Source: a bacterium UBP2_UBA5202
Lineage (GTDB): Bacteria > Edwardsbacteria > AC1 > EtOH8
Length of the DNA stretch: 64,000 nucleotides
Assembly (NCBI GenBank): GCA_002412795.1
Contig: DHVS01000011.1
Coordinates: 19,824-83,823 of the forward strand
Direction of reading: 5' to 3'
Every line of letters begins with the position of its first letter. The first letter of the stretch is position 1. The notes under the pieces were generated by a model that was not told the origin of the DNA, made no database searches, and saw nothing but the letters and a program-made list of their open reading frames with translations. Shown here one piece after another: positions 1-29,461 of this stretch. The position numbers and the translations under genes were made by a program.

Positions 1-341
1 GCACGTTATGGCACGAGGCGGTACATTCCACAGGCCACCAGAAAAGGCTGGATAGGAACAATAGCTACGACAAGGCAAAGTTCAGGGAGGCCTACAGCAA
101 CGAGGAATTGATAGCAGAGCTGGGATCATCATTCCTTTGTGCCTATGCCGGGATAGCACCAATGACCATACAGAACCAGGCTGCCTACATTGATTATTGG
201 TTAAAGAGGCTACAGGGTGACAAAAAGCTGATCATATTTGCGGCATCGGCGGCCCAGAAAGCAGCGAACTACATTATGAACGAACCCGGGGAGATCAATT
301 ACAACGCCTGTACTTGGCTGGGCGACTACTACAACTTATAA
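1..341 (+). CDS. ArdC-like antirestriction protein, C-terminal zincin-like metallopeptidase domain (5' partial; frame continues from window start)
   Basis: Frame 3 is open from nt 3. Translation reads TLWHEAVHSTGHQKRLDRN...YIDYWLKRLQGDKK...AASAAQKAANYI. The HExxH plus HSTGH..RL.R motif and the C-terminal AQKAA motif are typical of ArdC/TraC-like proteins of conjugative elements. Confidence 0.6.
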   Translation, partial: TLWHEAVHSTGHQKRLDRNNSYDKAKFREAYSNEELIAELGSSFLCAYAGIAPMTIQNQAAYIDYWLKRLQGDKKLIIFAASAAQKAANYIMNEPGEINYNACTWLGDYYNL

Positions 342-352
342 GGAGGGAAACC

Positions 353-532
353 ATGCACACAGCAACCATCACACATAAAAGGGAGCGTAGAAAGTATTCC
401 GAAAGGCTGGAGATCAAGGCCCCCTGTCCGTTATGCAGCCATACCTGTATCCTGGTCATTACCGGCAGCGAAAAGGAATACTACTGCCCCGATAAGTTCT
501 GCCCCAACTGCAAGGACCGCCATGAAGAATAA
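353..532 (+). CDS. small Cys-rich (CPxC...CPNC) zinc-ribbon-like protein
   Basis: GGAGG ribosome-binding site 8 nt upstream of the ATG at 353. Two CxxC pairs (CPLC, CPNC). A terminator follows. A longer ORF from 314 is possible, but 353 has the better ribosome-binding site. Confidence 0.4.
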   Translation: MHTATITHKRERRKYSERLEIKAPCPLCSHTCILVITGSEKEYYCPDKFCPNCKDRHEE

Positions 533-545
533 CAAAAGCACATAG

Positions 546-579
546 AGAGCCATTCCAATAACGGAGTGGCTCTTTTTTT
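546..579 (+). terminator. rho-independent terminator
   Basis: 7-bp stem AGAGCCA/TGGCTCT (546-552 / 567-573), followed by TTTTTT (574-579). Confidence 0.55.
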
Positions 580-597
580 GTGCCCGAAAGGAGACCT

Positions 598-1023
598 ATG
601 AAACGATATCCTACCTACCCCTTGGAGCTTTTAAAGGTGTCCGAGGCCATCACCAAGTGTCAGATATGCCGACCGGAGATAGTCTACGAGTACATGAAAG
701 AGGAATCCATGGCCGACCGGGAGATCTTCTGGGTTTTGCATCTGAATACCAAGAACCGGATAGTCAAGAAGGAAATGACAGCCATGGGAGCGGTGGACAG
801 TTGCCGGATAGTCCCTGCACTTGTTTTAAGGGGAGTAGTAGCATTAGGAGCACCAAGCATTATGACAGTGCATAACCACCCCAGCGGAGACCCCACCCCA
901 TCAACAGAGGACAGGCAGCTTTGGGGTACTTTGAGAGAGGCTTGTAAACTACTGGGTATCCGGGTACTGGACAACCTGGTGATCGGAGCTAATGGGTACT
1001 ATTCCGAGGAAGAAAACAAGTAA
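598..1023 (+). CDS. RadC-like JAB/MPN domain protein (DUF2466 family)
   Basis: HNHPSGDPTPSTED JAMM-like motif. GGAGA ribosome-binding site before the ATG at 598. This family is typical cargo of conjugative and integrative elements. Confidence 0.75.
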   Translation: MKRYPTYPLELLKVSEAITKCQICRPEIVYEYMKEESMADREIFWVLHLNTKNRIVKKEMTAMGAVDSCRIVPALVLRGVVALGAPSIMTVHNHPSGDPTPSTEDRQLWGTLREACKLLGIRVLDNLVIGANGYYSEEENK

Positions 1024-1171
1024 TTGGGGCTATGGGGCCGGTGTAGGGGGATGCTGCCAGGACCAAGGGCGATCTTTTCAAATAAATAAAATAAGGGCAC
1101 GGAATAGGACTAAAATAGATGGATATTTAGCTTGCTTTTGTCGGGGTTAAATTGTATTATTGTTGTAATTT

Positions 1172-1696
1172 GTGACTTCTCAAATTGACGTATCCGTATC
1201 ACCCTACATCCATCATTCTATGATCGAAATATCTGTTATAACTATCGGATTTGCGCATAAATTTAGATTTCGCCAAGGAATCAAAGTACAAGAAGTCTTA
1301 AAAAAAGTTTTTGACTATGAATTTAATGGTTATTATATTACTGTAAATGGTGTCAAGGCAAACAGAGATACCATTCTTAAAGACAAAGATATCCTTATTG
1401 CTGTTACTTCAGTCAAAGGCGAAGCAACTTTGAAAAGTAATGGTAAGATTTGGAGATATCATAAAAATGATCCTGACGATATTTTCCCGAGTGATTTTCA
1501 TGCGCATAATTATGAAGATGGTTTTTTATTGGATATTTATACTGGGCAAGTATTTGATCATAACACTAAAATGTACATTGGTACTTTAAAAAAGAAAAAT
1601 ATGTATGTGCTGTATATGAAATTGAAAGAATCTAGGGATATTGCTATTTCTTCACGGTGTGATGATGATCCCACAAAGTTTACTTTTTTAAAATAA
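1172..1696 (+). CDS. hypothetical protein (AT-rich sub-island)
   Basis: Long ORF in the low-GC block; no motif recognised. Start uncertain (alternative Met codons downstream). Confidence 0.35.
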   Translation: MTSQIDVSVSPYIHHSMIEISVITIGFAHKFRFRQGIKVQEVLKKVFDYEFNGYYITVNGVKANRDTILKDKDILIAVTSVKGEATLKSNGKIWRYHKNDPDDIFPSDFHAHNYEDGFLLDIYTGQVFDHNTKMYIGTLKKKNMYVLYMKLKESRDIAISSRCDDDPTKFTFLK

Positions 1697-1732
1697 CGAT
1701 TCATTTAAATATTGGCGAAGAAAGAATAATAT

Positions 1733-2536
1733 ATGATTACCCTTTACCAGGGGAGTGGTGCGTCCGGGTATTCTTTACTAGATTCCCCAATATCTGACGA
1801 AGAACTTTTAAAATTAAAAAGTGCAGTTACGAGGCTTCTTTTAGCTCGTAAACAACAAAATGCTGCTGCTTCCCTTCAATTATATCAATTTGAGCTGAGT
1901 AATGGCACAAATTTTTTTGGAGATGCTTTTCTTGTCCTTCATGCAAAATTACCAGTAGAGGAATATGTAAAACTGTCCGAATGTATGTCGGACCCCACAT
2001 ATTACTTATCGTTTAAATATATCGCAGCAGCTTTTCAAGAACTTAGTCATTATATTCGCTTTATTTCCATTGATGTAGATACCAACGATAGAGGTACAGT
2101 GGTTGAAACACTGACACCAAAAATTACAAGTGCTACAGTTGAAAGAGCACTGAAAGATGCTGAAAACCTTCTCCATTCTAATGGTGCAATAAGTGCGGTA
2201 GATCGTATTCATACTGCAATTCACGGTTATCTTAAGGCTGTATGTGAAGATCAAAATATTGAATATGCATATGATGCTGGGTTAACTCAACTATTTGGGT
2301 TATTAAGGGATAATCATCCGTGTTTAAAACTAAATGGTCCTAATGATCCAGACATAGTCCGTATATTAAGATCCAGCGCTGCAATATTAGAGTCAATAAA
2401 TAATGTTCGTAATCGTGCCAGCGTTGCTCATCCTAACACTGATCTTTTAGATGAACCGGAAGCTATATTGGCAATTAATTCTGTCCGTACATTATTGCAT
2501 TATCTTGATGCAAAAATACGGAAGTCATGTTCATAA
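1733..2536 (+). CDS. Abi_C-like abortive-infection family protein (putative)
   Basis: C-terminal NVRNRASVAHPN resembles the conserved RN..aHg core of the Abi_C (AbiJ/Abi C-terminal) domain. AT-rich. Lies upstream of the GmrSD/SIR2 pair. Confidence 0.4.
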   Translation: MITLYQGSGASGYSLLDSPISDEELLKLKSAVTRLLLARKQQNAAASLQLYQFELSNGTNFFGDAFLVLHAKLPVEEYVKLSECMSDPTYYLSFKYIAAAFQELSHYIRFISIDVDTNDRGTVVETLTPKITSATVERALKDAENLLHSNGAISAVDRIHTAIHGYLKAVCEDQNIEYAYDAGLTQLFGLLRDNHPCLKLNGPNDPDIVRILRSSAAILESINNVRNRASVAHPNTDLLDEPEAILAINSVRTLLHYLDAKIRKSCS

Positions 2537-2597
2537 ACAAATATCATTCGGGTTTTCATTCTGACACAATTTATGATTTCATTTTAATAATTTATTA

Positions 2598-4205
2598 ATG
2601 GGGGCTTTTATGGGCACAACAACAAAGCAATTGCATCAATTACTTGACTTAGTAAATAATGACGAGTTAGTTCTACCGGAAATTCAGCGCGATTTTATAT
2701 GGGATCGTAAAAATGTATTATTATTATTTGATTCTTTATATCGTGGCTTACCGATAGGGTATATGCTTGTTTGGAAGGCAAAACGGGCGGTAGCAGAGAA
2801 AGGTTTTAAACGGAGTCTTAAAAGGATTCCTGGTCGTCGTATTGATAATTTCTACGGTTATCTTTTAGATGGCCAACAAAGGCTTACATCTATTCAACTT
2901 GTTCGTGATGGAGAGGACTATTATTCATTAATGTTTTCTCTACGTCCCCAATTAGACGGAGATCCGGATTCAAATCGTTTTTCTTATGCCGCACGGTGGA
3001 ATAGTGGCCCATGGTTTGTCCCGGTATCTGAAGTTCTTGAGGGAACCTTAAAGCCGTTGGTTGTTATTGAAAATCTTAAAAAAGCAGATGATTTTGATTA
3101 CCATAGGGATGCAGAAAAAATAATTACATCTATTGCCAAACTTTCTGATATCATGGACCGCTCAATTGGTATTATTGAACACGAGGAAGACGATTATAAA
3201 AAAGCTACGGAGTTATTTATTCGTTTTAATTCAACTGGTAAAAATCTTAGGCGCAGTGATCTTGTGGCTGCCGAACTAGCTTTAACCGTTCCAAATTTAA
3301 TATCTACAAAGATACAAAAAGCTTCAACTACTATTTATAATCACTACGGTTTTAATTTTACTAAAACATTTTTAATACAGTGTTTATCTGCAGTTCATAC
3401 TGATAAAGTTGATCATAAGAAAGCTAAAGAAGTATGGTGTAAGTCCACAGAAGCGCAAATATTAAAATCCTGGGAAAGAACTTCTTTAGGCATTGATCGG
3501 GCAATAGAATTTATCACTGGAACTGTCCGCTGGGATTCTGATGCCTGGCTCCCATCGATAAATGCCTTAATGCCTTTGATATATTTGATGTCAAAGAAAA
3601 AATTTAATGCGCAAGAGCGTTTGATGGCAAGGCAGTGGTTATTACTTTCATCTTTCTACGCAATATTCAGCGGTTCAGTTTACAGTGAGTTAGATAGATT
3701 GTTTAAAGGCTTAAAAAATGAACCTTCTATTGACAAATTATATGCATTAACAAAAAGATATTTTTATAAAATAAACCCTGATAGCTTAATGTCTGGTCGT
3801 AGAACTGGTGCTGTTATGTCGCTCTATATATCATTATTGCGTAACACAAATGCAAAAAACTGGATTACACACACACCTCTTGATGGTTCTGTTGTTGGCC
3901 ATAATGCAGAACTTCAAGTCCATCATATATTCCCTCGTTCGTTATTGTTAAAACGAGGTTATAAATATTCCGAAATAAATACTTTTGCAAACTATGCTTT
4001 AATCAATAAAGATAGTAATTTAGACATATCTGATGAAGAACCAACTAAATATATTAAGAGATTGTCTATCAAGAAAGACGATCTGTGGCCGCAGTGTTTT
4101 CCCAGAGATATGAAATTATTAAATGTCAAACATTATGATGAATTTATCTGTGAAAGACAAAAAGTATTGGCCAGAGCCTTTAATGATTATATATTTGGAG
4201 GTTAG
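2598..4205 (+). CDS. GmrSD-like type IV (modification-dependent) restriction endonuclease, DUF262 + DUF1524
   Basis: N-terminal LPEIQRDFIWD...GLPIGYMLVW...LLDGQQRLTS (DUF262, ParB-like NTPase motifs). C-terminal HHIFPRS His-Me finger (DUF1524). Confidence 0.7.
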   Translation: MGAFMGTTTKQLHQLLDLVNNDELVLPEIQRDFIWDRKNVLLLFDSLYRGLPIGYMLVWKAKRAVAEKGFKRSLKRIPGRRIDNFYGYLLDGQQRLTSIQLVRDGEDYYSLMFSLRPQLDGDPDSNRFSYAARWNSGPWFVPVSEVLEGTLKPLVVIENLKKADDFDYHRDAEKIITSIAKLSDIMDRSIGIIEHEEDDYKKATELFIRFNSTGKNLRRSDLVAAELALTVPNLISTKIQKASTTIYNHYGFNFTKTFLIQCLSAVHTDKVDHKKAKEVWCKSTEAQILKSWERTSLGIDRAIEFITGTVRWDSDAWLPSINALMPLIYLMSKKKFNAQERLMARQWLLLSSFYAIFSGSVYSELDRLFKGLKNEPSIDKLYALTKRYFYKINPDSLMSGRRTGAVMSLYISLLRNTNAKNWITHTPLDGSVVGHNAELQVHHIFPRSLLLKRGYKYSEINTFANYALINKDSNLDISDEEPTKYIKRLSIKKDDLWPQCFPRDMKLLNVKHYDEFICERQKVLARAFNDYIFGG

Positions 4206-5299
4206 TGATAATCGTGAGATATAAAGATAGAAAATTATTAGATAAAGTATTTATTTTAGGGGCGGGTTCATCGTATAGTCTAACTGCTGGTCAATCTAAC
4301 AAAAATTGGATAGCACCGTTAGACGCTGAATTCCCAAAACGAATATGTGATTTGCAAAATAAACGTGGTTGGAGCAAAGAAGCTTCACAGAGGATTCTTG
4401 AGGATTGGTTGTATCATGTTGATTTTAATAAAATGAGTTTGGAAAAAGCAATCTCTCAACAAATAGCAGATTTACATTTTCTTGAGGCGATTCAACCCCA
4501 CAAAGGCATTCAACAAAGAAACGCATTAGAGTATTTAGAGGATGTAACATACGTCATATCATATATATTGAAACAAATACGAGTTAAAAACAAAAAAGCT
4601 GAAGAATTGTTCATCCAGAAATTTTTTGATTACGTTAGTGTAGATGCGTGCCCTAATCGGATAATTACTTTTAATTATGATACTATTGTAGATGCTCCTT
4701 TGATTGCAAAATATAAACCACAAGATGTCTATTTTTACAAGATAAAATCTGGAAGGAATATAAAAAATCCAAGAGTGACGCATAATCGTCATCCGTTATT
4801 GTTGAAGTTACATGGATCGGTGAATTGGTATTGCACTAAAGATACTTTTCGTGAAATATTTATTGATCTTTCAAAAACCAATACAAAGTCTTTCGCTATT
4901 AAAGATGATGCTTCAACAAGCCGATATATTAAAGATATATGGATTGATTATACCTGCATATCTCCCAAAGACGATTGTATACCATTAACCATTCCACCAA
5001 TACCAGTAAAGCCGGTAACAGATATTTCAATATTTACATATTTATGGACATGTGCTTATGAATATTTACATGATTGCAAAGAGATTGTTATTTCAGGCTA
5101 TAGTCTTCCAGAAACAGATACCCTGGCTGTGTCATTATTTTCTAAATTCAAGAATATGCAGTTAACAAAATTAACAATAATTGACCCATCTGCTGTTTCA
5201 ATTAGTAAATGGATGGCGATATTTCAGCGCAAGAATATTTCAAGGAAATATAAAATAGAATATTATCCGGATTTTTGTCAGTATATAAAAAATATTTAA
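4205..5299 (+). CDS. SIR2-like (SIR2_2 family) protein, probable NAD+-depleting defence effector
   Basis: FILGAGSS, ITFNYDT and KLHGSVNW correspond to the GAGxS / TTNYD / HGS motifs of the SIR2_2 family. The GTG start overlaps the GmrSD stop (TAGTG) with GGAGG upstream. Confidence 0.6.
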   Translation: MIIVRYKDRKLLDKVFILGAGSSYSLTAGQSNKNWIAPLDAEFPKRICDLQNKRGWSKEASQRILEDWLYHVDFNKMSLEKAISQQIADLHFLEAIQPHKGIQQRNALEYLEDVTYVISYILKQIRVKNKKAEELFIQKFFDYVSVDACPNRIITFNYDTIVDAPLIAKYKPQDVYFYKIKSGRNIKNPRVTHNRHPLLLKLHGSVNWYCTKDTFREIFIDLSKTNTKSFAIKDDASTSRYIKDIWIDYTCISPKDDCIPLTIPPIPVKPVTDISIFTYLWTCAYEYLHDCKEIVISGYSLPETDTLAVSLFSKFKNMQLTKLTIIDPSAVSISKWMAIFQRKNISRKYKIEYYPDFCQYIKNI

Positions 5300-5318
5300 A
5301 TATGTGCCCATAGCCCTG

Positions 5319-5357
5319 CCGTCTGCCTCTGCCCTATATAATAATGGCTACAGCATC
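5319..5357. repeat. 39-bp direct repeat copy 1 (CCGTCTGCCTCTGCCCTATATAATAATGGCTACAGCATC)
   Basis: Matches 5709-5747 at 35/39 positions. Contains a TATAAT-like element. Confidence 0.7.
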
Positions 5358-5420
5358 TAGCGGTTCTTTTTTCATATTGATTGTTTTATTATCAACCATT
5401 TTTATCAATAAGGAGATTCC

Positions 5421-5691
5421 AATGGCTAAGCAACCGATAACTCATTTTTGCGTTAGCAGGTATGCTAAAGTCTTCCCACCAAATATTCATACTCATTCTG
5501 ATTCAGTGGTTTTTTCATTGCCGTTTGAGGAGGCTGCCAAGCTTAATCTGGCGCTCGATGAATCTCTTAAAATAGCAATGCGAGAAGGTAGGAAAACGGG
5601 GGAGTTATTTATTCCCAAGGGATATATTGAACTTGGTTTTACTATAAGTAATAAGCTGGTGGTTGTATATTATTCTGACAAGAATAAATAA
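5421..5691 (+). CDS. hypothetical small protein (90 aa) bracketed by 39-bp direct repeats
   Basis: AAGGAG ribosome-binding site 6 nt upstream of the ATG at 5421. The track ORF 5344-5691 includes an improbable N-terminal extension. Confidence 0.35.
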
Positions 5692-5708
5692 CGGAATTAC
5701 GGTCATTA

Positions 5709-5747
5709 CCGTCTGCCTCCGCCCTATAGAATGATGGCTACGGCATC
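5709..5747. repeat. 39-bp direct repeat copy 2 (CCGTCTGCCTCCGCCCTATAGAATGATGGCTACGGCATC)
   Basis: Direct repeat of 5319-5357. Confidence 0.7.
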
Positions 5748-5759
5748 AGGGCCAGACCT

Positions 5760-6249
5760 TTAAATGTGGCCCTCGTTGGCTTCGTTCGCTGCATTCCAGA
5801 GCCTTCGACCTCCTTCATTCCGCTTCTCAATCTACTTCGGGCATTATACGCTCAGGCACGTAGTTGGCATAATAGTCAATTCCGTGCCTTTGCTTTATCT
5901 TTTAGCTCCAGGCACAGGCAGATTCCTGGATCGCTTACAGGGTAGCGGCGCTGGGTTTCGGCATGGCACCGTATAGCCACCAGGAAAGACGGCGGCTCCA
6001 GGCCAGCTCCAGGTCGCTCGTTCCACCTGTCGCTATTCCGCCGCCTGACCCATAATGCGCATTATGGTTCCTTGTCCCTTGCCTTGCCCCAGCGCTACGC
6101 CCGGAGGGTTTACATAACCGGCATTATGCAAACTACCCTGCTACGCTCTTGTAGGCCAGGCCCGCATCTGCCATTGCCTGTCGCTGATAAACTGGCCGAC
6201 CTGCCACGTTCCCTTTCAGGGGCTACCTTACAGGTTACGGGCTGTGGTC
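5760..6249 (+). ncRNA. candidate structured non-coding RNA / GC-rich non-coding element (class unknown)
   Basis: About 500 nt of GC-rich sequence with no credible ORF on either strand (only short overlapping ORFs). Sits between AT-rich coding blocks and ends at an intrinsic terminator. Contains a perfect 18-bp palindrome at 6050-6067. Confidence 0.3.
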
Positions 6250-6285
6250 TATCTGATACGACCGTTGTTTGATCCAGCAACGGTC
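6250..6285 (+). terminator. rho-independent terminator
   Basis: Stem GACCGTTG/CAACGGTC (6250-6257 / 6268-6275), followed by CTTTTGTATTT. Confidence 0.45.
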
Positions 6286-6372
6286 TTTTGTATTTGCCGG
6301 CACATATATCAAGATATCTGTGGTTGTATCCCCCCACATCCCAGGAGGATATAGTTTCAGGTATAATCGCGG

Positions 6373-6687
6373 ATGGTGTGGGGTGTTTTTAGGCTTGATT
6401 TTGTCGGGGCTAAGATGTATCCTTATAACATGAATGAAGACATGCCGAAATATTACAACCTGACGGCCGGTTCCGAGTTGGACTGCATGGCCAGAAAGCA
6501 CGGGTTTGAACCCGACCTGTATGGCTGGTATGTGATAAGGGACAACGGGCTGAAGGACGTATGGGATGCCTGGGTCAAATGCCGGGCCCTGCAAAAGGAA
6601 GTAAAGATCCGCTGGCCCAAGGCTGATTGGATAATATGCATAATTTCATACGACCTGTACATCATGGTCTTTCCGGAGGAAGAATAG
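6373..6687 (+). CDS. hypothetical protein
   Basis: ORF only; the start could be Met 6415. No motif recognised. Confidence 0.3.
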   Translation: MVWGVFRLDFVGAKMYPYNMNEDMPKYYNLTAGSELDCMARKHGFEPDLYGWYVIRDNGLKDVWDAWVKCRALQKEVKIRWPKADWIICIISYDLYIMVFPEEE

Positions 6688-6772
6688 GTTTCTATAAGCG
6701 GGAGGCCGCCAGGGAATTGATTCTTGAATAAGGTAACATGGTAAATATATAAGTAGAGATAGAGGAGAAACT

Positions 6773-6985
6773 ATGAAAGTACATAAAATTATCGAAGGTA
6801 GTGAGTTGGTATATCCAAAAACAGGCGAGTTTACTGTTTACTGCCCTGTATGTCCTTCTATTTGGATGCAAGACAATGAAAGTACAGAAAAATATTGTCA
6901 GCATCTTCGTTTTTTCTATAACAGATTGAATTTCCATAATCAACAACCGGCCCATGAAATGCTTGGGCTAAAAATCACCCATTGA
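6773..6985 (+). CDS. small hypothetical protein with a CPVC motif
   Basis: GAGGAG ribosome-binding site before the ATG. 70 aa. Confidence 0.4.
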   Translation: MKVHKIIEGSELVYPKTGEFTVYCPVCPSIWMQDNESTEKYCQHLRFFYNRLNFHNQQPAHEMLGLKITH

Positions 6986-7031
6986 AGTAGCTCGTGTTGA
7001 ACTTCTTGGTTGAATTCGAAAAGGAATAATT

Positions 7032-7643
7032 ATGATTAGAGAATGTCCCGGAATATTGCCAGATTCAATAACAAAGGTTCTTGATAAATTAGCCGATGAA
7101 TGGGCAACCTCTGCAATCAGGCCCAAATTAGATAAAGAGGTCACGAAAAACTGGGACAATCTTATTAAAAGTTGGACCAACGACGAAACCCTGCCTCTTT
7201 TTATTAGAAGGCCTAACCTTGGGAGAGGTTCAGTAATAAAACATGAAACGGGCAGGGATTTAGTTCCTGTTGACAATACACCTGCACATTGGGTATTTAA
7301 TATGGCTGACGAATACGGACATATGACTATTGAAGAATTATTTAATAAAGTGAATGATCGAGATGTCCCCGTGGCTATGGTGTTGTCTATAGAAGAGAGA
7401 AGAAACAATCTATTTAAAACTGGCAATCCACGAATTATGTTAAGTAGTAAAGGTTGGCAAGTGTGCCACAAAAAACCAGTCAAACTTGGCCCAAATGGAG
7501 ATGTAAAAAATATTCCCATAAATATACTTAAGGAACATTTTGTTCGGTTGATGATCCCTTCAAATATATTTCTTGTCCCCAAACAGCTTGGCGCTCTTGG
7601 AGAACTGCCGCAGTTTACTAATAGGATGATGGATATAGATTAA
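7032..7643 (+). CDS. hypothetical protein
   Basis: 203-aa ORF with AAGGAA upstream; no motif recognised. Confidence 0.45.
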   Translation: MIRECPGILPDSITKVLDKLADEWATSAIRPKLDKEVTKNWDNLIKSWTNDETLPLFIRRPNLGRGSVIKHETGRDLVPVDNTPAHWVFNMADEYGHMTIEELFNKVNDRDVPVAMVLSIEERRNNLFKTGNPRIMLSSKGWQVCHKKPVKLGPNGDVKNIPINILKEHFVRLMIPSNIFLVPKQLGALGELPQFTNRMMDID

Positions 7644-7857
7644 TTTAACTTATACAAGTGGCAGCTTTGGCAATGATAGTACCTAACGACATATGGTCTG
7701 ATTGGATTTTGTCACTCCTCTATAATACAATAACAGGGTCCGATAATGAGTTTATGTATCGCTAATTATTCATACCAATCGAATGCCAAAATTGTCTGTA
7801 TCAAAAAACTAAAACTACTGGACATATGCCGTGCCGGGCTGGGAAAGGAGTATTAAC

Positions 7858-8523
7858 ATGAGAACGCTGGTGATCCACCCCAATGACTCAACCACTGATT
7901 TTCTGACTGATATCTATTCCGGCAAAAACTGGGAGGTCATAAGAGGTCCAATTAAGAAAGAAGAGCTTGCTGCTAGGATAGCAGACCACGACAGAATAGT
8001 TATGCTGGGACATGGCCTGCCCTCCGGACTAATCGGACACGGAGGCCTGGTAATTGACGAGTCCATGGCTCATCTGCTGCGGGGCAGGAAGTGCGTGTGC
8101 ATCTGGTGCAATGCCGACCAATATGTGTTGCGTCATGGTTTGTCTGGGTTTTACACCGGGATGTTCGTTTCCGAACCGGCCGAGGCCAGGTTGTTCGGCC
8201 TGCCGATTGACGCTGATCCGATTAAGGAGTCCAACCGGCTCTTTGCGGTAGCTGTCAGGGATTCAATTTTTAAGGAGAACATGCTGGAATTGACCAGGCA
8301 GGCCTATAACAGCAAGACCAACCCGGTGATTGATTACAACCGGAACAACTTGTACTCCAGGGATGCTTTGATCGAAGACTGGCAGGGGCCTGGTGGAGGC
8401 GCTGGCCACGATTATGAGATTGACCCTGTTGACAACCATGTGAACGACAAATCAATTGAACAAGCCCATGCAATCGGCAGTATTTTGAAAGTAGGGAAGA
8501 ATAAGTATGAGAAAAATCAGTGA
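7858..8523 (+). CDS. hypothetical protein, possibly a caspase-like His/Cys fold; first gene of the Hsp70-helicase operon
   Basis: AAAGGAG ribosome-binding site before the ATG at 7858. IVMLGHG...CVCIWCNAD spacing resembles a caspase/CHAT His-Gly and Cys dyad (weak). 3' end overlaps the next gene by 17 nt. Confidence 0.45.
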   Translation: MRTLVIHPNDSTTDFLTDIYSGKNWEVIRGPIKKEELAARIADHDRIVMLGHGLPSGLIGHGGLVIDESMAHLLRGRKCVCIWCNADQYVLRHGLSGFYTGMFVSEPAEARLFGLPIDADPIKESNRLFAVAVRDSIFKENMLELTRQAYNSKTNPVIDYNRNNLYSRDALIEDWQGPGGGAGHDYEIDPVDNHVNDKSIEQAHAIGSILKVGKNKYEKNQ

Positions 8524-10933
8524 TGCGTTCCACGCCCTTGTCGCATCCGGCCCGAAGACTCTTAAAGTCCCGGACCAACCGGTGCGGGTCATCGGCATCG
8601 ACCTGGGCACAACCAATTCCACCATTGCCGAGATAATATGGGACCCGGACCAGCCCGGTGAGGTCAAGCCCCGATGCGTGGAGGTAAGCCAGGAAACCAT
8701 GGCCGGGGATTATACTCATATACTGATCCCGTCCGCAGTGGCCTTGCACCAGAGCAAGGCTATCATCGGCGAGGGGGCCAAGCGTCTGTTCCCCCGCTCG
8801 GCCGAGCTGGGCCTGGAGTCTTACAAGGACATTTTTCTGGAATGCAAGAACGACATGGGCAATGACCGCACCTACCACCGGGCGCCCCAGGGTTATCGTT
8901 CCGCGGCCGAGATCGGCGGCCATGTCCTGAAGTTCCTGGCCGGAGCGGCGTCCCAGCAAGGAGGCATCCCAATTTCTCATACGGTGGTCACGGTACCGGC
9001 TTCGTTCCAGATCTCCCAGCGCCAGGACACCGTCAAGGCGGCCGAGCTAGCCGGAATCACCATCGCCAACGGCGACCTGCTGGACGAGCCCATTGCCGCC
9101 TTGTTTGACTATCTGGTGGCTTTTCCGGAGAAGGTGGCCGAGCATCTGACCGGAAAAAAGAACCTGGTTGTGTTCGATTTCGGGGGCGGCACTTGCGATG
9201 TGGCCGTATTCCAACTGGAACAGGCCGACCTCGGGGGCCGGATAGGCATTTCCCCGCTGGCGGTATCTCGCTACCATCGCCTGGGCGGAGGGGACATAGA
9301 CCGGGCCATTGTTCACCAGGTGCTGATACCCCAGCTGATCGAGCAGAACCGCCTGAACAGCTTCGATATCGGGTTTGAGGACCGAAAAAACAAGCTGGAA
9401 CCGGCCCTCTTGGGGGTGGCCGAAGCGCTCAAGATGGGACTTTGCGATGAGATCAGGACACTTATTAGTTTTGGCAAATACAAATCTTCTGACAAGACAA
9501 CGGTAATCAAGATCCAGCCAGGACTCCACACCTGTTATCTTAACCATGAAAAATGGGAGCTGCGTTCACCGGCATTGTCAGCCAAGCAGTTTGAAGACCT
9601 GCTGGTCCCGTTCCTGGACTCTGACCTGCTCTATGCCAGGGAGACCGAATACTTCCTGACTTGCTCGATATTTGCCCCCATCCAGGACGCCTTGGACCGC
9701 TGTGGGCTGGAGACGAAGGACGTGGGCCTGTGCCTTTTGGTGGGCGGCAGCTGCCTTATCCCGCAGGTGTCGGCGGCGGTCAGAAAATACTTTGACAAGG
9801 CAACCATTTTTCAGCATGACAACCCCGATGCCATTCAGGTGGCCGTGGCCAAGGGGGCGGCCTGCCACGCCCTTTCGCTGGCCCTCTATGGGCATGGTCT
9901 GTTCCAGGTAAAAGCCCAGGAGCCCATAAATGTCAGCACAGCCTCGGGTCCGGTCGAGATCATACCCAAGGGGGCCGCTCTGCCTTACCCGGCCGAGGGA
10001 TGGAACACATTCAAGGCGCTGACGGTGCCGTCGACATCAATTAAAGATCCAGTGGCCATGAAGGTGGAGATTACCGCCGGGCCCAAGGACGATGTACGCA
10101 TCCTTTTCAGCCAGACCTGGTTCATTCCTGCCCCGGTCAACCAGGGTGACAGGCTTATATTGAGCTACCGGTTGGACGGCAACCAGGTGTTCGATTTTAA
10201 GCTGCGTTTGGAAAGCGACCCCGAGGGTGAAGGATACGACGGCCAGATCCAGAATCCCCTGACCAATGTGGTCAATCCCAACAAGACCAGGATCCTGATC
10301 CAGCAGGACGAAGAGGAACTGAGGACCGGGTCGGTGCCCAAAAGACTGATTCCCAGCAAGATAGTGGAGATCGCCCAGAACTATGCCAAGATCAAGCAGT
10401 ACGAGAAGGCCATTTCCTATCTGCAGAGGGCCTTGAGGATGGGCGACAGCCCCGATCCAAATATTCTGAACCTGATGGGTATTTATAGCGGGCATATAGG
10501 TGACACCGCCCATGAGGAGAAATATTACCGGGAATCCGCTGCCCAAGGAGGCGGCTCGGCATCCTTGTTTAATCTGGCCTTGAGCCAGAAAGAGAGAGGC
10601 AAGAACCAGGAGGCCCTGAAGACAGTCGAAGAGGCTGTCGAGGAGGGAGCGGACGGTCCGACCATGACGCTGCAGTCCATGCTGCAGGAAAAGACCGGGG
10701 ACAAACGGGGTTCGGAAAAATCGATCAAGGAAGCCTTTGAATTGTTCCGCCCATTTTCGGCCATGACAGACTGGGAGCTGGGTTGGTATATCACAGCCTG
10801 CAAAATGTCCGGACGCGATTCCGACCAGGAGAAGGCCAAAAAGGAAATGAGCCGCCGGGGCCAAAAGGGTGATATGACCGGAGGGGCCGATGGGATGCTA
10901 CCGGGCCTTTCCGGGGACTTGGTCCGGCGATGA
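8507..10933 (+). CDS. Hsp70 (DnaK)-like actin-fold ATPase with C-terminal beta-sandwich and TPR-like extension
   Basis: IGIDLGTTNS (Hsp70 signature 1) and VVFDFGGGTCDVAV (signature 2 / phosphate-2) are present. Roughly 430 aa follow the ATPase core, ending in TPR-like helices. Stop overlaps the next start (ATGA). Confidence 0.8.
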   Translation: MRKISDAFHALVASGPKTLKVPDQPVRVIGIDLGTTNSTIAEIIWDPDQPGEVKPRCVEVSQETMAGDYTHILIPSAVALHQSKAIIGEGAKRLFPRSAELGLESYKDIFLECKNDMGNDRTYHRAPQGYRSAAEIGGHVLKFLAGAASQQGGIPISHTVVTVPASFQISQRQDTVKAAELAGITIANGDLLDEPIAALFDYLVAFPEKVAEHLTGKKNLVVFDFGGGTCDVAVFQLEQADLGGRIGISPLAVSRYHRLGGGDIDRAIVHQVLIPQLIEQNRLNSFDIGFEDRKNKLEPALLGVAEALKMGLCDEIRTLISFGKYKSSDKTTVIKIQPGLHTCYLNHEKWELRSPALSAKQFEDLLVPFLDSDLLYARETEYFLTCSIFAPIQDALDRCGLETKDVGLCLLVGGSCLIPQVSAAVRKYFDKATIFQHDNPDAIQVAVAKGAACHALSLALYGHGLFQVKAQEPINVSTASGPVEIIPKGAALPYPAEGWNTFKALTVPSTSIKDPVAMKVEITAGPKDDVRILFSQTWFIPAPVNQGDRLILSYRLDGNQVFDFKLRLESDPEGEGYDGQIQNPLTNVVNPNKTRILIQQDEEELRTGSVPKRLIPSKIVEIAQNYAKIKQYEKAISYLQRALRMGDSPDPNILNLMGIYSGHIGDTAHEEKYYRESAAQGGGSASLFNLALSQKERGKNQEALKTVEEAVEEGADGPTMTLQSMLQEKTGDKRGSEKSIKEAFELFRPFSAMTDWELGWYITACKMSGRDSDQEKAKKEMSRRGQKGDMTGGADGMLPGLSGDLVRR

Positions 10934-12186
10934 GCTGGCTTGTTCCCGAAAATGAGCTTACCCCCGAGCAATTGCGGGCCATCAGGCTGGGACCGGAGGA
11001 AAACCGGGCAATAGTTGGGGGCCCTGGTTCCGGCAAGACCCAGATCCTCTTGTACCGGGCACGGTTTCTCAAGGATAAGCACAGGATATTTCCGGCAAAA
11101 TTCAGGGTGCTGGTCTATACCAATGTACTTAAGGATTACATTCGCTCCGCCCTACCGCTTTTGGGGCTGCCGGACGAATGCGTGCTTACCTTCGACCATT
11201 GGTGCCGGTTGTTTTATGAGGAACACATCGGCCGGACGCTTCCCTGGGACGCTACACACAAAACGCCAGATTTTGCCGCAATACGGCAGGCGGTGGCTGC
11301 CTTGATCGAAAACCGTAAGGTCAAACTTCCCCTTTATGACTTCGTGCTGGTGGACGAGGGGCAGGACTTGGATATAGGGGTCTTCAACCTGCTATCGAAG
11401 ATCGCCAAGCATGTGACGGTCTGCCTGGATTCCAAACAGAAGATCTATGACACAGATTCCAACGAACAGAGCATACTTTCCGTACTGGGAATACAAAGGC
11501 GCAACATCAGCCTGATAGACGCTTTCAGGGTCTGCCCCTACCTGGTGCGTCTGGCCTCGGTGCTGATTCCAGAACAGGGAGAGAGGGATGCTTTCGTAAA
11601 CCAAGCCAGGACCGAACAGGTGGAAAGGCAAATGCCGTTCCTGTACTTGGCAGATTCATATGCCGATGAGAAGGAAAAGCTCTTTCAGATGATCCGCGAG
11701 CGCCAGCTTAAGAACGATTCCATAGCCATTTTGTTCCCCATCAACAAACAGGTCTTCGGATATGCCCAGGGCCTGAAGGAGGCCGGGATCGAGGTCGAGG
11801 TGCCTCAAAAGGGGAAGACCAAGGGTAAAATCCCCACCCATGATTTCGGAAGCAGCCGCCCCAAGCTGATGTCCTACCATAGCGCCAAGGGCCTAACATT
11901 TGATTCTGTGTTTATGCCGAGGCTTACATCCAGGGCCTTCGAATTTACTAGGCAAAGCCAAGAACGGATATCCAAACTGCTGTTCGTGGCCATTACCAGA
12001 GCCACCAAATGGGTGTTCATCTCGACAGATAAAAAGGATATGCTTGACGTTATCCGCGACAAGATGCTTCCGATGGAAAGCACAGGGCAAATCTTCGTCG
12101 GTCGCATGGGGCAAAATGTAAGGGGATCACAACCATCAAAAATCCCCGAAATTGAAACAGAAAACGACCCGCTGGATTTTTTATAA
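10930..12186 (+). CDS. minimal UvrD/PcrA-like SF1 helicase (P-loop NTPase)
   Basis: LTPEQLRAI (Q motif), GGPGSGKT (Walker A), VLVDEGQDL (motif II), MSYHSAKGLTFDSVFM (motif V), LFVAITRATKWVFIS (motif VI). Confidence 0.7.
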   Translation: MSWLVPENELTPEQLRAIRLGPEENRAIVGGPGSGKTQILLYRARFLKDKHRIFPAKFRVLVYTNVLKDYIRSALPLLGLPDECVLTFDHWCRLFYEEHIGRTLPWDATHKTPDFAAIRQAVAALIENRKVKLPLYDFVLVDEGQDLDIGVFNLLSKIAKHVTVCLDSKQKIYDTDSNEQSILSVLGIQRRNISLIDAFRVCPYLVRLASVLIPEQGERDAFVNQARTEQVERQMPFLYLADSYADEKEKLFQMIRERQLKNDSIAILFPINKQVFGYAQGLKEAGIEVEVPQKGKTKGKIPTHDFGSSRPKLMSYHSAKGLTFDSVFMPRLTSRAFEFTRQSQERISKLLFVAITRATKWVFISTDKKDMLDVIRDKMLPMESTGQIFVGRMGQNVRGSQPSKIPEIETENDPLDFL

Positions 12187-15338: not shown

Positions 15339-15476
15339 TTATACTTATTCCAGATCTAATGCTATTATTTCTTGACAATTCTATAGTAGGGTGATAATAT
15401 ATATTTGTTATTGAGGGATAAATTTCTAATCACTTGTCTTTAATGGAGATAGAAAAATATATTAGTGGGGGGTATC

Positions 15477-17051
15477 ATGCCGAAATCAAAAAGGACTGTT
15501 GTTGTTGGAGATGTTCATGGACAATTTGAATCTCTAATTCTTATTCTAAATCATGCGGGATTGATTACTGAAAAAGGTGATTGGGCTGGAAGTGAAGATA
15601 TATTTATTCAAATAGGTGACGTGATTGATAGGGGACCGGACTCGCTAGATTGCTATAATTATCTAAAACAAATTCAGAAACAAGCCCTAAAAAAGGGTGG
15701 GGCAGTAGTAAGATTATGCGGCAATCATGAGTTGAATTTATTGCAGGGGGACTATGGGGAAGCAAAAAAAGATATAAAAAATCCCGAGAAAGTTGCTGGA
15801 GCAATTAAGAAAGACGTTTTATCGGGAGATATAAAGGCTGCGCATACCGATGGTTGTTGGCTTTTCACTCATGCCGGACTTCGTTCAGAAGTTCGCAAAC
15901 TGTTGTTAAAAGAGATGGGCTCTAACGTAAAGGATGTTGATCTGGTGAAACTAGTCGGCTATATTAATGACCGTTTTGTCAGTTTGGTAAAAAAGGGCGA
16001 GCTGGAGGGTCATCCTTTGCTATGGGTCGATCCTAAACGCGGTGGCAATGATAAAGTAGGGGGTATTTTCTGGGGGGATTGGAGCCTCATATCGCCATCT
16101 GTCCAGGCGAATGAAATACCGCAGGTGTTTGGCCATACCCCGACCGGTAACAAGGAAATAAATGTTTCATTATATTCGGGATTGATCAATATTGATACCG
16201 GGTTGTGCTTTGGCGGTAATCTTTCATTTTTAGAAATAACAGCTGATGGAGTATTATTCCGTCATATGATGAAAAATAAGAAGTGGACCTCATCTAAAAT
16301 AGAAACAGAAATAAACAGGACACAAAGCATAAAAATGGACTCAAGAAAACCCAATAGATCATTGATTCCCAGAAGAAAAACAAAGGGACCAGAATGGAGC
16401 TGGTCATTAGGTGAAGTGAATACCTCTAAAGATCATTTCAAACTTAAATACTTTTCTTCATCGGAAGATCAGAATGGGCATTTAGTGGCGCTTATAGGAA
16501 AACCAGTTGGTCAGAATTTTACTGTAAAAATACTTGAAGGGGAAAAAAGCTTAAAGAACAACAAGATGGTTAAGGCTGCATTAAAGGAGATAGATTATTA
16601 TTTGATAAATAAGGGCGAAACTGATCCTTGGCGGTACGCAATATACCACTGCGGCACTTCGTCTAACCTCTATTCTGAAATACGTTGGATGTATTTTCCG
16701 ACTGATAAAGACTTAAAAGGCATTAAAAATGTTCAACCGATTTACTATGTAGACGTTTCCAATAGCGACAACAAATTTGTGGGGAGGTTTGTGTTTGATC
16801 CCCTTTCAAAAGCTATAGTTCAGGAAGATGTTACAGACAAAAAGATTATGGATTATTTTCAACAAAGTGAGGCATGGACACCCCAAGGCCCCGAGAGAGT
16901 TACCGCAACTCAAAATCCCATTAGGTGGCTTGAATTGTTGCATGTTGCAACCGGATCACAGGGGCCGTTTGTCAGCGATATTAAGAAAAAAGTGATTAGC
17001 TATAACCGTAATTTGAGAACAGAAAATATTAGCGATAGAGAAGATGAATAA
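15477..17051 (+). CDS. PPP-family metallophosphoesterase (Ser/Thr phosphatase-like) with C-terminal domain of unknown function
   Basis: GDVHG, GDVIDRGPDS and GNHE calcineurin-like phosphoesterase motifs. About 250 aa of uncharacterised C-terminus. Confidence 0.7.
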   Translation: MPKSKRTVVVGDVHGQFESLILILNHAGLITEKGDWAGSEDIFIQIGDVIDRGPDSLDCYNYLKQIQKQALKKGGAVVRLCGNHELNLLQGDYGEAKKDIKNPEKVAGAIKKDVLSGDIKAAHTDGCWLFTHAGLRSEVRKLLLKEMGSNVKDVDLVKLVGYINDRFVSLVKKGELEGHPLLWVDPKRGGNDKVGGIFWGDWSLISPSVQANEIPQVFGHTPTGNKEINVSLYSGLINIDTGLCFGGNLSFLEITADGVLFRHMMKNKKWTSSKIETEINRTQSIKMDSRKPNRSLIPRRKTKGPEWSWSLGEVNTSKDHFKLKYFSSSEDQNGHLVALIGKPVGQNFTVKILEGEKSLKNNKMVKAALKEIDYYLINKGETDPWRYAIYHCGTSSNLYSEIRWMYFPTDKDLKGIKNVQPIYYVDVSNSDNKFVGRFVFDPLSKAIVQEDVTDKKIMDYFQQSEAWTPQGPERVTATQNPIRWLELLHVATGSQGPFVSDIKKKVISYNRNLRTENISDREDE

Positions 17052-17392: not shown

Positions 17393-20300
17393 ATGTCATT
17401 AGATCTTACATTCATCACCAACGAATCCGGCAAAGACCTACGTGACCGTTTTAATGTCTTGCTAGGTAAGGATACACGTTATTTCGATTGCCTCGTCGGT
17501 TATTTCTTCATCAGTGGGTTTTATAAACTATATCCTTCGCTCATCAAGACTGAAAAAATACGCATTCTCGTCGGTATTAAAACCGATACTGATATTTACG
17601 AGTTGATTCAGACAGCGAAGGCTCAACAGGAATTTGTTCTTGAGTCACATGCATACGTCCGGCAGCAACTGCCCGCTGAAATCCTAAGTGAGTTTCAGAG
17701 ATCTGGTGATAGCGTTGACATAGAGGATGGCGTTCGGAAATTTGTGGATTGGATTAAATCCGGTAAGCTGGAGGTCCGTGCCTATCCGTCAGAACGGGTT
17801 CATGCAAAGCTCTATATCATGACATTCCAGGAGGGTGACCGCGATAAAGGCCGCGTCATCACCGGATCGAGCAATTTCACTAAGGCAGGCTTGATAGACA
17901 ATTTGGAATTCAATGTCGAGTTAAAGAACCGCTCCGATTATGACTTCGCCATCCAGAAGTTTAACGAGCTTTGGGCCAAGTCTGTTGACGTGACTGAGGA
18001 TTACGTCACGACGATAGAAGTCAAATCACCATACGCCCAATTCACACCCTACGAACTATATTTAAAGTTCCTCTACGAGTACTTCCGTGGCGAACTCAAT
18101 TTGCCCGACGAAATCGAGGATATGTATGTGCCCACGGGTTTCAAGAAACTGAAATACCAGGAAGAGGCCGTGTTGAACGCACGGAAAGTGCTCGATGAAT
18201 ACGGCGGTGCGTTTCTGTCCGACGTGGTCGGTCTCGGTAAAACCTACATGTCTGCTTTGCTCGCCCAACACCTCAACGAGCCTTGTCTCGTCATCGCCCC
18301 ACCGCACCTGCTCGATGAGCACAATCCTGGATCGTGGCCGAATGTCTTCCGTGAATTTGGTGTCAGAGGCTTTTTGTGCGAATCCCTCGGCAAGCTAGAT
18401 TCCCTGCGGGACCGCGACCTTCAGAAGTTCACAACCGTCTTCATTGACGAATCGCACCGCTTCCGCACCGAAGATACACAGAGCTATGAGATGCTCGCAC
18501 AGATATGCCGTGGTAAGCGCGTCGTTTTGGTCTCGGCTACACCGTTAAACAACACACCGCAGGACATCCTGAGCCAGATCAAACTGTTCCAGCCTGGCAA
18601 AAATAGTACTATTCCCAACGTCCGCAATCTTGAAGCCTTCTTCGGTTCGCTCCGGCGGCGGCTCGAAGGACTAGACCGCCAACGCGACCATGAGGTCTAT
18701 TTCCGTACGGTACAGGAGAATGCCCGGCAGACCCGCGAGAAAATACTCAAGTTCTTGATGATCCGCCGTACCCGCACCGAGATCGAGCGATACTACGGCG
18801 AAGACTTAAAGAAACAAGGACTGAAGTTCCCGGAGGTCGTCAATCCCGAACCGCTTTTCTATAAGTTCAACAAGGTCGAGGCCGAAGTCTTCGATGAGAC
18901 GATCCGTTCGCTGACGCATGACTTTAAATATGCCCGCTATACTCCGTTGGCCTACTACAACGGGGAGCGCGATGAACAGGATGTTCAGAGCCAGCGCAAC
19001 CTCGCCAAGTTCATGAAAATCCTAACGGTTAAGCGGCTCGAAAGTAGTTTCACCGCGTTCCTGTCCACGCTTGGGCGCTTCATCCATACCTACGAGCGTG
19101 TCATCGCAGAGTTCCAGAAGGGCCACGTATTCATCAGCAAGAAACACATCGGAAAAATCTTTGAATTACTAGAATCGGACGATCAGGAGGGCATTGACCG
19201 GCTGTTAGAGGAAGACAAGGCCGAGAAACTGGCGGCTAAAGATTTTATGCCGACGTTTATCGCTGATCTAGAAAATGATTTGAAGGCGCTGAAATCCATT
19301 CGCAACCAGTGGAATAAAGTTACCCGCGACCCCAAGTGGGAATCGTTCCGGGGCATCCTCAAGAAATCGCCCTATATCAAGGACAGCAAGATCATTATTT
19401 TCAGCGAGTCAAAGGAAACCGCCGACTATCTCGCCGGTAAAATCCGCGACGAGGTCGAACCCAAAACCCTACTTTATACTGGCGAGTCGCTTCACAGCGT
19501 CCGCGAGGATGTTATCGCCAACTTTGATGCCAAGGCGTATCGGCCCAAGGACGATTACCGCATATTAGTCGCCACAGAAGTACTCGCCGAAGGCGTGAAT
19601 CTCCACCGTTCCAACGTTGTCATCAACTATGATATTCCATGGAATCCCACCCGCCTCATCCAGCGCGTGGGTCGCGTCAACCGTGTGGACACGAAGTTCG
19701 ACAAGATTCACACATACAACTTTTTCCCGACTGATGAGGGCAACGACCTCATCAAGCTCCGCGAAGCCGCCGAGGCGAAAATCCACGCTTTCATTCAAAT
19801 GCTCGGTGCGGATGCCCGTCTGCTGACCGAGGGCGAGGAAATCGTCTCGCACGACTTGTTCGCCCGGTGGAATTCCAAAAAGACAATAACCGGCGAGGAC
19901 GAGGCGGAGGAAACAGAACTCAAGTTTCTCACCGAAATCCGCGCTCTTCGGGACAAACAACCGGATTTGTTCGAACGCATCAAACGCCTACCCAAGAAAG
20001 CCCGCTCCACTCGCGTCTTGTTGGATGAACCGGCAGTCCAGAATCCCCCGGCGTTACTCACTTATTTCCGCCAAGGCAAGCTCGACAAATTCTTCCTCGG
20101 TACGTCCGGTAACCAACCTACCGTCGAACTGGACTTCATGACCGCCGCGAAAATCTTGAAGCCCACCGATCCCAAAGAACCTCGCCAATCCATCCCTCAC
20201 GAGTTCTACGATTTGCTCGATAAGAACAAGGCTACCTTTGTCATCGCCACCACCGCCGATGCTGAACAAACTTCTGCCACCCATCGCGGTAGCCCGAATG

Positions 20301-29385: not shown

Positions 29386-29461
<76 letters not shown>

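Follow-up and report, generated by a model that had tools for sequence, protein, structure and literature searches.

A compositionally foreign cassette of five co-oriented genes

The 64,000-nt stretch of contig DHVS01000011.1 analyzed here (referred to as the window; GenBank assembly GCA_002412795.1 of the bacterium UBP2_UBA5202, Edwardsbacteria) carries an AT-rich gene cassette at ~1.1–5.75 kb, in which a gene for a GmrSD-like protein is closely followed by a gene for a SIR2-family protein. An initial annotation of the window had read the low-GC segment between ~1.1 and 5.3 kb as separately acquired DNA and had proposed that GmrSD and SIR2 form a coupled, co-expressed pair. The drop in GC content is sharp and longer than first described: values calculated in 500-nt windows lie between 0.30 and 0.38 from ~1001 to ~5750, compared to 0.49–0.50 on the left flank and 0.47–0.61 on the right flank. 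The low-GC block thereby reaches ~450 nt past position 5300 and takes in an additional small open reading frame (ORF), orf89. Overall, the GC content of the cassette is 0.34 versus 0.51–0.55 outside. The GC content at third codon positions (GC3) is 0.25 for orf174, 0.21 for the Abi_C gene, 0.27 for the GmrSD gene and 0.24 for the SIR2 gene, compared to 0.59 for RadC, 0.72 for an Hsp70-like gene, 0.60 for a methylase and 0.57 for an integrase. Because both GC and GC3 differ from the flanks, the block is compositionally foreign and probably horizontally acquired, in agreement with the separate acquisition that had been proposed. No DNA near-identical to the window's first 8 kb was found in E. 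coli genomes or plasmids.

Five ORFs, all on the forward (+) strand, occupy the AT-rich block, and the publicly available gene calls for this element concur with them. The orphan orf174 (1172–1696; GC 0.31) is followed by an Abi_C/HEPN (AbiJ-like) gene (1733–2536; assigned by Pfam and PADLOC), which was correctly placed upstream of GmrSD by the initial annotation. The BrxU-like GmrSD gene (2610, alternatively 2598, to 4205) was assigned by Pfam, PADLOC and fold, and the SIR2 gene (4214, less likely 4205, to 5299) by its motifs, fold and the N-terminus of its homologues; orf89 (5422, alternatively 5344, to 5691; public gene call, 89 aa) is the last AT-rich gene. Successive intergenic gaps measure 36, 73, 8 and 122 nt. 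On the + strand, a single convincing terminator-like hairpin was detected, downstream of the cassette (6260–6285), and the cassette genes are probably transcribed together. For GmrSD and SIR2, co-transcription is very likely because the two genes are separated by 8 nt and no terminator-like site was seen between them, which supports the proposed co-expression at the level of transcription. A promoter scan returned 28 sites versus 21.7 expected, a count that is uninformative in AT-rich DNA, and the host is possibly not of the sigma-70 type. Rfam gave no credible match within positions 1–9000.

A new, divergent BrxU/GmrSD-family protein

The 531-aa GmrSD protein matched the Pfam family GmrSD_N (DUF262) at 93.4 bits (cut-off 33.2; E = 2.7e-26), whereas GmrSD_C (DUF1524) scored 19.3 bits, under its cut-off of 23. 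The DUF262 plus DUF1524 architecture initially assigned to this gene was nevertheless borne out, as a homologue with 55% identity (P0133) passes GmrSD_C at 24.5 bits and the PADLOC model HEC-05, which corresponds to BrxU (bioRxiv 10.1101/2024.01.29.577857), aligns with residues 139–530 (E = 1.2e-39). When the GmrSD family profile was compared with solved structures, BrxU (7p9k) was the sole relative (E = 5e-26). An AlphaFold 2 model of the window's protein (predicted local distance difference test score, pLDDT, of 84) was likewise matched best by BrxU in a Foldseek search, over its full length (615 columns; E = 1.8e-15), with DndI and SspE next. Invariant positions among 32 family members include FDS (D41, S42), DGQQR (87–91), HH (438–439), N461 and N470. 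The motifs to which BrxU function has been tied, RLFDS, DGQQR and DHIYP (bioRxiv 10.1101/2024.01.29.577857), read LLFDS, DGQQR and HHIFP in the window's GmrSD.

Translation from ATG 2610 fits the homologue consensus MGT..K.L, and a start at ATG 2598 is also possible. A weak N-terminal match to the PADLOC model NsnA was observed (E = 1.9e-4), and matches on plasmids reached only ~25–28% identity. Overall, the protein adds a new, divergent member to the BrxU/GmrSD family and, judged by its profiles and modeled fold, is predicted to be a full-length type IV restriction enzyme comprising a DUF262 NTPase, a helical linker and a DUF1524 His-Me-finger nuclease.

SIR2 is a predicted stand-alone NAD+-consuming effector

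The GAGSS, TFNYDT and HGSVNW motifs reported initially are present in the 361-aa SIR2 protein, and the family invariants fall within them (G16, A17, G18 and S20; N154 and D156 of TFNYD; H200 of KLHGS.NW). In the Pfam search, the window's protein itself scored 22.2–22.3 bits against SIR2_2, under the cut-off of 24.5; however, its nearest homologue (P0002) passes at 25.1 bits, and most of the best 120 of 551 family homologues carry PF13289 in precomputed annotation. The SIR2_2 assignment is supported by the family, its motifs and its fold. The SIR2 fold starts at about residue 10, and the AlphaFold 2 model is confident (pLDDT 90.4; predicted template modeling score, pTM, 0.90). Foldseek ranked the SIR2 subunit of SIR2-HerA first (8sub, 8wld; template modeling score ~0.55–0.60), followed by DSR2 and Avs5, with the deacetylases CobB and SIRT5 scoring lower, all at a probability of 1.0.

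A PADLOC run over the region, which the initial annotation had suggested, recognized GmrSD (HEC-05) and the Abi_C protein (AbiJ), but produced only weak generic matches for the SIR2 protein (best E = 2.7e-8), to which no validated PADLOC system corresponds. Among 1.84 billion representatives, the number of clusters (counted at 50% identity) matched by the family profile rose from 72 at E <= 1e-30 to 2591 at E <= 1e-10 and to 8075 at E <= 0.001. No match to the SIR2 protein was found by tblastn against plasmids and phages. Its motifs and modeled fold point to a stand-alone SIR2-fold protein, which is predicted to act as an effector that consumes nicotinamide adenine dinucleotide (NAD+).

The GmrSD and SIR2 genes are closely spaced

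The two genes meet at the sequence GGAGGTTAGTGATAATCGTGAGA, where the GmrSD stop codon TAG (4203–4205) shares its G with a GTG at 4205. This shared base had been taken as an overlap between GmrSD and the SIR2 start. The base is indeed shared, but GTG 4205 is not favored as the start: translation from an in-frame GTG at 4214 produces the N-terminus MR.YKDRK...FILGAGSS, which aligns from residue 1 with every homologue, and the deposited 361-aa product (P0001) begins at the same codon. Because of this conserved N-terminus and the public gene calls, the SIR2 start was placed at GTG 4214. A GGAGG motif is positioned just upstream of the SIR2 start, inside the end of the GmrSD gene. On sequence grounds, a gap of 8 nt appears better supported, and likelier, than an overlap; with both arrangements, the genes are tightly packed.

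The GmrSD–SIR2 pairing was seen in a single element only

Recurrence of the pair in other genomes was assessed in 189 loci; those around SIR2 family members were drawn from species-representative genomes, metagenomes, IMG/VR and exact-protein look-ups. A strong SIR2 family member was present in 35 loci, ~24 of which were independent after same-contig duplicates had been removed, and all ORFs in the 189 loci were searched for GmrSD using phmmer with the window's protein as well as a 120-sequence family profile. A GmrSD-family gene was found beside SIR2 only in three loci (L001–L003), which represent the window's own element in different samples, and was absent from the ~24 independent SIR2-family loci. 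Conversely, no SIR2 gene was found near GmrSD relatives (44–62% identity) in eight independent contexts. Among these, in one context each, GmrSD was followed after 193 nt by an unknown 287-aa gene, faced a convergent gene, preceded a second DUF262 gene, was situated in an island with other DUF262 genes, stood alone among housekeeping genes (L188, one of the relatives with 56–62% identity) or was located beside PmbA/TldD. The nearest relatives of the two partners (53% and 62% identity) both lacked the other partner. The coupled system proposed initially is thus not supported: for both families, the pairing was unique to this element in the loci searched.

Fusion proteins were also searched for. 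None was present among the top 120 members per family (SIR2, 307–394 aa; GmrSD, 420–559 aa, out of ~940 homologues), and no SIR2–DUF262 fusion was found in the best 150 of the 8075 representative matches, which were 340–440 aa long or fragments, apart from one of 689 aa. No description of a GmrSD–SIR2 or DUF262–SIR2 system was found in the literature searched, and the survey of Menshen and DUF262 proteins makes no mention of SIR2 (PMC12065111). Because the relatives of neither family carry the other, no fusions were found and GmrSD keeps its nuclease motifs, the two genes look autonomous and recently juxtaposed.

The neighborhoods of the SIR2 family are diverse. All-versus-all clustering of 189 ORFs within 3 kb of SIR2 revealed no neighbor family common to independent loci, except for a type I methylase that was seen twice, and in a PADLOC scan of 97 neighbor ORFs no family was present in more than two, with methylase models dominating. 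The genes immediately upstream of SIR2 show no relationship to each other. They encode a PDC-S11 nuclease (at a distance of 66 nt), an OLD-type ATPase (at 44 nt), DnaN (at 77 nt), an HNH protein, a chemoreceptor (methyl-accepting chemotaxis protein, MCP), the small subunit of ribonucleotide reductase (RNR), an MMPL transporter and an epimerase. The family therefore has no conserved partner and is often positioned close behind unrelated genes; because other members sit 44–77 nt behind such genes, close spacing is not specific to GmrSD. Defense neighborhoods were also observed among these loci, with type I restriction-modification (R-M), PDC-S11, AbiEii, RES-Xre, OLD ATPase and HNH genes as well as RE_ScaI accompanied by a helix-turn-helix (HTH) gene. 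In Thiohalobacter thiocyanaticus (L007:4324-9068), the SIR2 homologue lies just after genes for type I HsdM and a PDC-S11 nuclease, with NOV_C, AbiEii, RES-Xre and HNH downstream; a type I methylase is also found near the SIR2 homologue of a further locus (L008), and both fit the pattern of defense genes embedded in type I R-M loci. On two short metagenome contigs, SIR2 family genes are directly downstream of DnaN (L095:1150-3427) and of the RNR small-subunit gene (L100:280-2844), and these contexts may be genomes of phages or other mobile elements rather than defense islands.

DUF262 genes lie near SIR2 genes at two distant loci

Among ~141 distant SIR2_2 loci, a DUF262 gene was found near SIR2_2 in two, both involving short, nuclease-less DUF262 proteins and SIR2 proteins distant from that of the window. 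On metagenome contig Ga0315296_10002423 (L136:4574-6663), a 344-aa DUF262 protein lacking a nuclease (Pfam GmrSD_N, 64.8 bits; PADLOC NsnA, E = 3e-34) is followed after 2 nt by a 350-aa SIR2_2 protein (31.9 bits), and the pair is flanked by an NYN gene and a MazE/PIN (VapBC-like) pair. At the other locus (L122:2919-6954), the DUF262 gene lies 1.7 kb upstream of a gene for a 401-aa SIR2 protein, with two genes between them. The contig with the 2-nt spacing is a better candidate for a real DUF262-to-SIR2 system than the window locus.

The AbiJ-like gene and two small ORFs

The 267-aa product of the gene at 1733–2536 matched Pfam Abi_C at 52.4 bits (cut-off 24; E = 5.8e-14) and Pfam HEPN at 24.1 bits (cut-off 22; E = 4.3e-5), and the PADLOC AbiJ model aligned with residues 122–258 (E = 6.4e-8). 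An R-x4-H motif (RASVAH) is present in its translation, and its C-terminal half is 38–49% identical to genes annotated as "abortive infection family protein" on 480 plasmids. From these matches, it is predicted to be an AbiJ-like abortive-infection protein with a C-terminal HEPN domain and RNase activity.

The small ORFs at either end of the cassette have few or no relatives. No Pfam or PADLOC match was found for orf174, which ends 36 nt upstream of the HEPN gene and is annotated as a gene in public assemblies; the sole family match was a sub-threshold, ThiS-like (beta-grasp) one over residues 16–81 (E = 1.3e-4, far under the cut-off). With a single partial relative (41% identity) among 5.8 billion proteins and no match on plasmids, orf174 is essentially an orphan. 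Similarly, orf89, which public assemblies annotate as an 89-aa gene, matched no Pfam or PADLOC family and had no relative in any collected locus.

Island context and repeats

The cassette sits in an integrated island of at least ~30 kb. ArdC and RadC are found toward the left side of the island, ArdC just upstream of the window. On the right, a tyrosine integrase (28314–29372), with an HTH_17 excisionase-like gene upstream of it, adjoins a tRNA-Met (CAT) at 29386–29461, beyond which housekeeping genes follow. This integrase/tRNA-Met arrangement at 28.3–29.5 kb is probably the right-hand end of the island. Por_Secre_tail domains are encoded in flanking genes and suggest a host of the Bacteroidota/FCB type.

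Two direct repeats on the + strand were identified around the cassette. A 28-nt repeat, GCTTGCTTTTGTCGGGGTTAAATTGTAT, is present at 1130–1157 and 6393–6420 (86% identical) and brackets the AT-rich block together with a GC-rich spacer. Only these two copies occur in the 64-kb window and none in 100 shuffles, and similarity ends beyond ~30 nt. The repeat would fit a block that was inserted or exchanged as a whole and may be a recombination or insertion site; alternatively, it may be a 5' leader shared by orf174 and a gene at 6373/6415–6687. A 39-nt repeat at 5319–5357 and 5709–5747 (90% identical; two copies only in 64 kb and none in shuffles) brackets orf89, with one copy directly downstream of the SIR2 stop codon and the other where GC content rises again; it may represent a boundary of the cassette or have a regulatory function. 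A 25-nt inverted repeat (1081–1105 and 5879–5903; 80% complementary) was considered as a possible pair of terminal repeats of a mobile cassette and set aside, since such a match is at chance level in 6.5 kb (~0.2 expected, as an estimate). The GC-rich spacer (5750–6370; GC 0.47–0.56) has no convincing ORF and no Rfam match, folds as RNA more stably than shuffled sequences (z = -2.75) and ends in the terminator-like hairpin mentioned above.

Further gene clusters were observed to the right of the cassette. Three overlapping genes at 7858–12186 encode orf221, an 808-aa Hsp70-like ATPase with C-terminal tetratricopeptide (TPR) repeats and a 418-aa UvrD-like helicase (overlaps at 8507–8523 and 10930–10933). 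PADLOC gave no match for these three genes; their arrangement is operon-like, and they may constitute an uncharacterized defense candidate in the same island. Farther along, an AT-rich Metallophos gene (15465–17051) is followed by a PLD-SNF2 helicase gene (17393–20608), which overlaps a gene for an MmeI-like N6-methyltransferase/restriction fusion (20605–24012), and an ADP-ribosylglycohydrolase gene begins 35 nt later (24047–24850).

Independent defense modules as the probable explanation of the cassette

We consider it probable that the cassette is horizontally acquired, AT-rich cargo of the integrated island and that its three anti-phage modules, each a single gene, are stacked independently of one another, with no sensor-effector partnership between GmrSD and SIR2. 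By analogy with characterized relatives, the AbiJ-like HEPN protein would act as an RNase that cleaves RNA and aborts infection. In GmrSD, as in BrxU and GmrSD systems, the DUF262 NTPase would gate the C-terminal His-Me-finger nuclease and thus the cutting of phage DNA with modified cytosines. The SIR2 protein may hydrolyze NAD+ after a phage cue and thereby starve the infected cell, as proposed from DSR, ThsA and SIR2-HerA. The 8-nt junction would then represent compact packing of cargo in one operon, and shared transcription could provide co-regulated, layered immunity in which restriction acts first and abortive infection serves as a backup. A layered, co-regulated immunity of co-oriented defense genes has likewise been argued for in an embedding study (bioRxiv 10.1101/2024.01.29.577857).

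Several observations weigh against this interpretation and lend weight to its main competitor, a true two-component system in which GmrSD would sense modified or foreign DNA, or anti-restriction inhibition, and license the SIR2 NADase as an abortive effector. The 8-nt spacing and the GGAGG within the last bases of GmrSD would also fit an operonic partnership, both genes have the same extreme AT composition, and the window's SIR2 protein has no recognizable sensor domain of its own, which leaves its triggering as a lone protein unexplained. The SIR2 subunit of SIR2-HerA, its closest structural relative, needs a partner. The tight pair in the remote lineage, where a SIR2 gene starts 2 nt after that of a nuclease-less DUF262 protein, shows that a partnership is possible in principle, and the DUF262 proteins of Menshen are sensors for separate effectors (PMC12065111). 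The independent contexts of the GmrSD family are also few (n = 8). We still regard a two-component system as unlikely. The family-level pair was found in none of the ~24 SIR2 loci, ~141 distant SIR2_2 loci and eight GmrSD contexts, the closest relatives of each gene occur without the other, fusion proteins are lacking among those searched, and spacings of 44–77 nt behind unrelated genes indicate that tight spacing is not peculiar to GmrSD. Moreover, because its nuclease is intact, GmrSD needs no additional effector.

The enzymatic activities and the defense role of this SIR2 family are themselves predictions from sequence, models and analogy, and the SIR2-fold protein could, instead of depleting NAD+ as an effector, serve a regulatory or housekeeping function as a protein deacylase or ADP-ribosyltransferase, or persist in the cassette as an inactive remnant. 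Its sub-threshold SIR2_2 score (22.2 versus 24.5 bits), the weak PADLOC matches and the occurrence of some relatives beside MCP, MMPL, DnaN and epimerase genes would be in line with such a role. We judge it very unlikely, however, as the family shows no variation in the catalytic Asn and His or in the GAGxS NAD-binding loop, the fold is nearer to SIR2-HerA, DSR2 and Avs5 than to CobB and SIRT5, several family loci are clear defense neighborhoods, and the window's gene is carried by a foreign cassette together with a restriction enzyme and an Abi gene. A more speculative possibility, to which we give equally little credence, is that DUF262 (GmrS-type) DNA sensors use a small SIR2 NADase as effector, with the window's operon as a young instance and the remote 2-nt pair (L136) as a cleaner, older form. 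If so, NAD+ depletion would be triggered as an additional layer of defense when the restriction enzyme senses modified DNA or is inhibited by an anti-restriction protein of a phage.

Read as three independent modules, the window is a clear example of how defense islands are assembled, with self-sufficient, foreign single-gene systems packed in an operon-like manner into an island bounded by an integrase and a tRNA gene, and it illustrates how poorly a functional partnership can be predicted from tight spacing by itself. The 361-aa SIR2 family, which has neither partner nor sensor and falls outside validated systems, is part of a class that numbers thousands of small SIR2_2 proteins, and such a bare enzyme offers a route to learning how it is kept off and switched on.

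Comparison with known defense systems

BrxU and GmrSD are documented as single-protein systems (PMC10952713; bioRxiv 10.1101/2024.01.29.577857). The window's GmrSD resembles BrxU (7p9k) in length and in combining DUF262, a helical linker and DUF1524 in a single polypeptide, and both share the FDS and DGQQR nucleotide-binding motifs and a (D/H)H-I-(Y/F)-P His-Me-finger motif. In contrast, identity between the two is only ~17–18%, the nuclease motif is HHIFP instead of DHIYP, and the window's gene is not located within a BREX or Hma locus. In Menshen, DUF262 proteins act as sensors for separately encoded effectors (PMC12065111); NsnA is such a sensor, whereas the window's GmrSD has a nuclease of its own and no NsnB or NsnC genes are present at the locus. 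The AbiJ-like protein is similar to Lactococcus AbiJ and other Abi_C HEPN proteins in length (267 versus 281 aa), its C-terminal Abi_C/HEPN domain, its R-x4-H motif and its match to the PADLOC AbiJ model, but its first ~120 residues match no known AbiJ N-terminal domain.

For the SIR2 protein, the closest solved fold is the SIR2 subunit of SIR2-HerA (Nezha), which is of similar size (~350–400 aa) and shares the active-site motifs GAGxS, NYD and LHGS.NW. Identity to this subunit is ~14–15%, no HerA or ATPase domain is encoded in any ORF between 580 and 8523, and none recurs beside the ~24 related loci. A SIR2 catalytic domain with the conserved Asn and His is also shared with DSR1/DSR2, ThsA of Thoeris, SIR2-APAZ/prokaryotic Argonaute (pAgo; SPARSA) and Avs5; for this domain, NAD+ depletion during infection is established (Garb et al. 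2022). These systems carry or partner with a sensor, in the form of a large C-terminal domain (DSR), SLOG plus TIR (ThsA), pAgo (SPARSA) or a STAND NTPase (Avs5), unlike the bare SIR2 protein of the window. In DSR1 and DSR2, SIR2 forms the N-terminal part and a sensor region the C-terminal part of a protein of ~1000 aa, compared to 361 aa for the window's protein and 340–400 aa for its family. Relative to Thoeris, the window's protein is single-domain, without a SLOG or Macro domain, and its neighbors gave no TIR match; relative to SPARSA, no pAgo is encoded at the locus. The nearest functional analogy for a SIR2 protein that would act alone is "sole-Sir2", here compared by description only. 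It differs in architecture from the window's protein, being ~440 aa long and having its Sir2 domain at the C terminus and a putative sensor at the N terminus; it is likewise a small, stand-alone SIR2-like single-gene system, and its NADase activity has been demonstrated in vitro, as has the protection of E. coli from T2 and T4 by a homologue (bioRxiv 10.1101/2024.12.27.630466).

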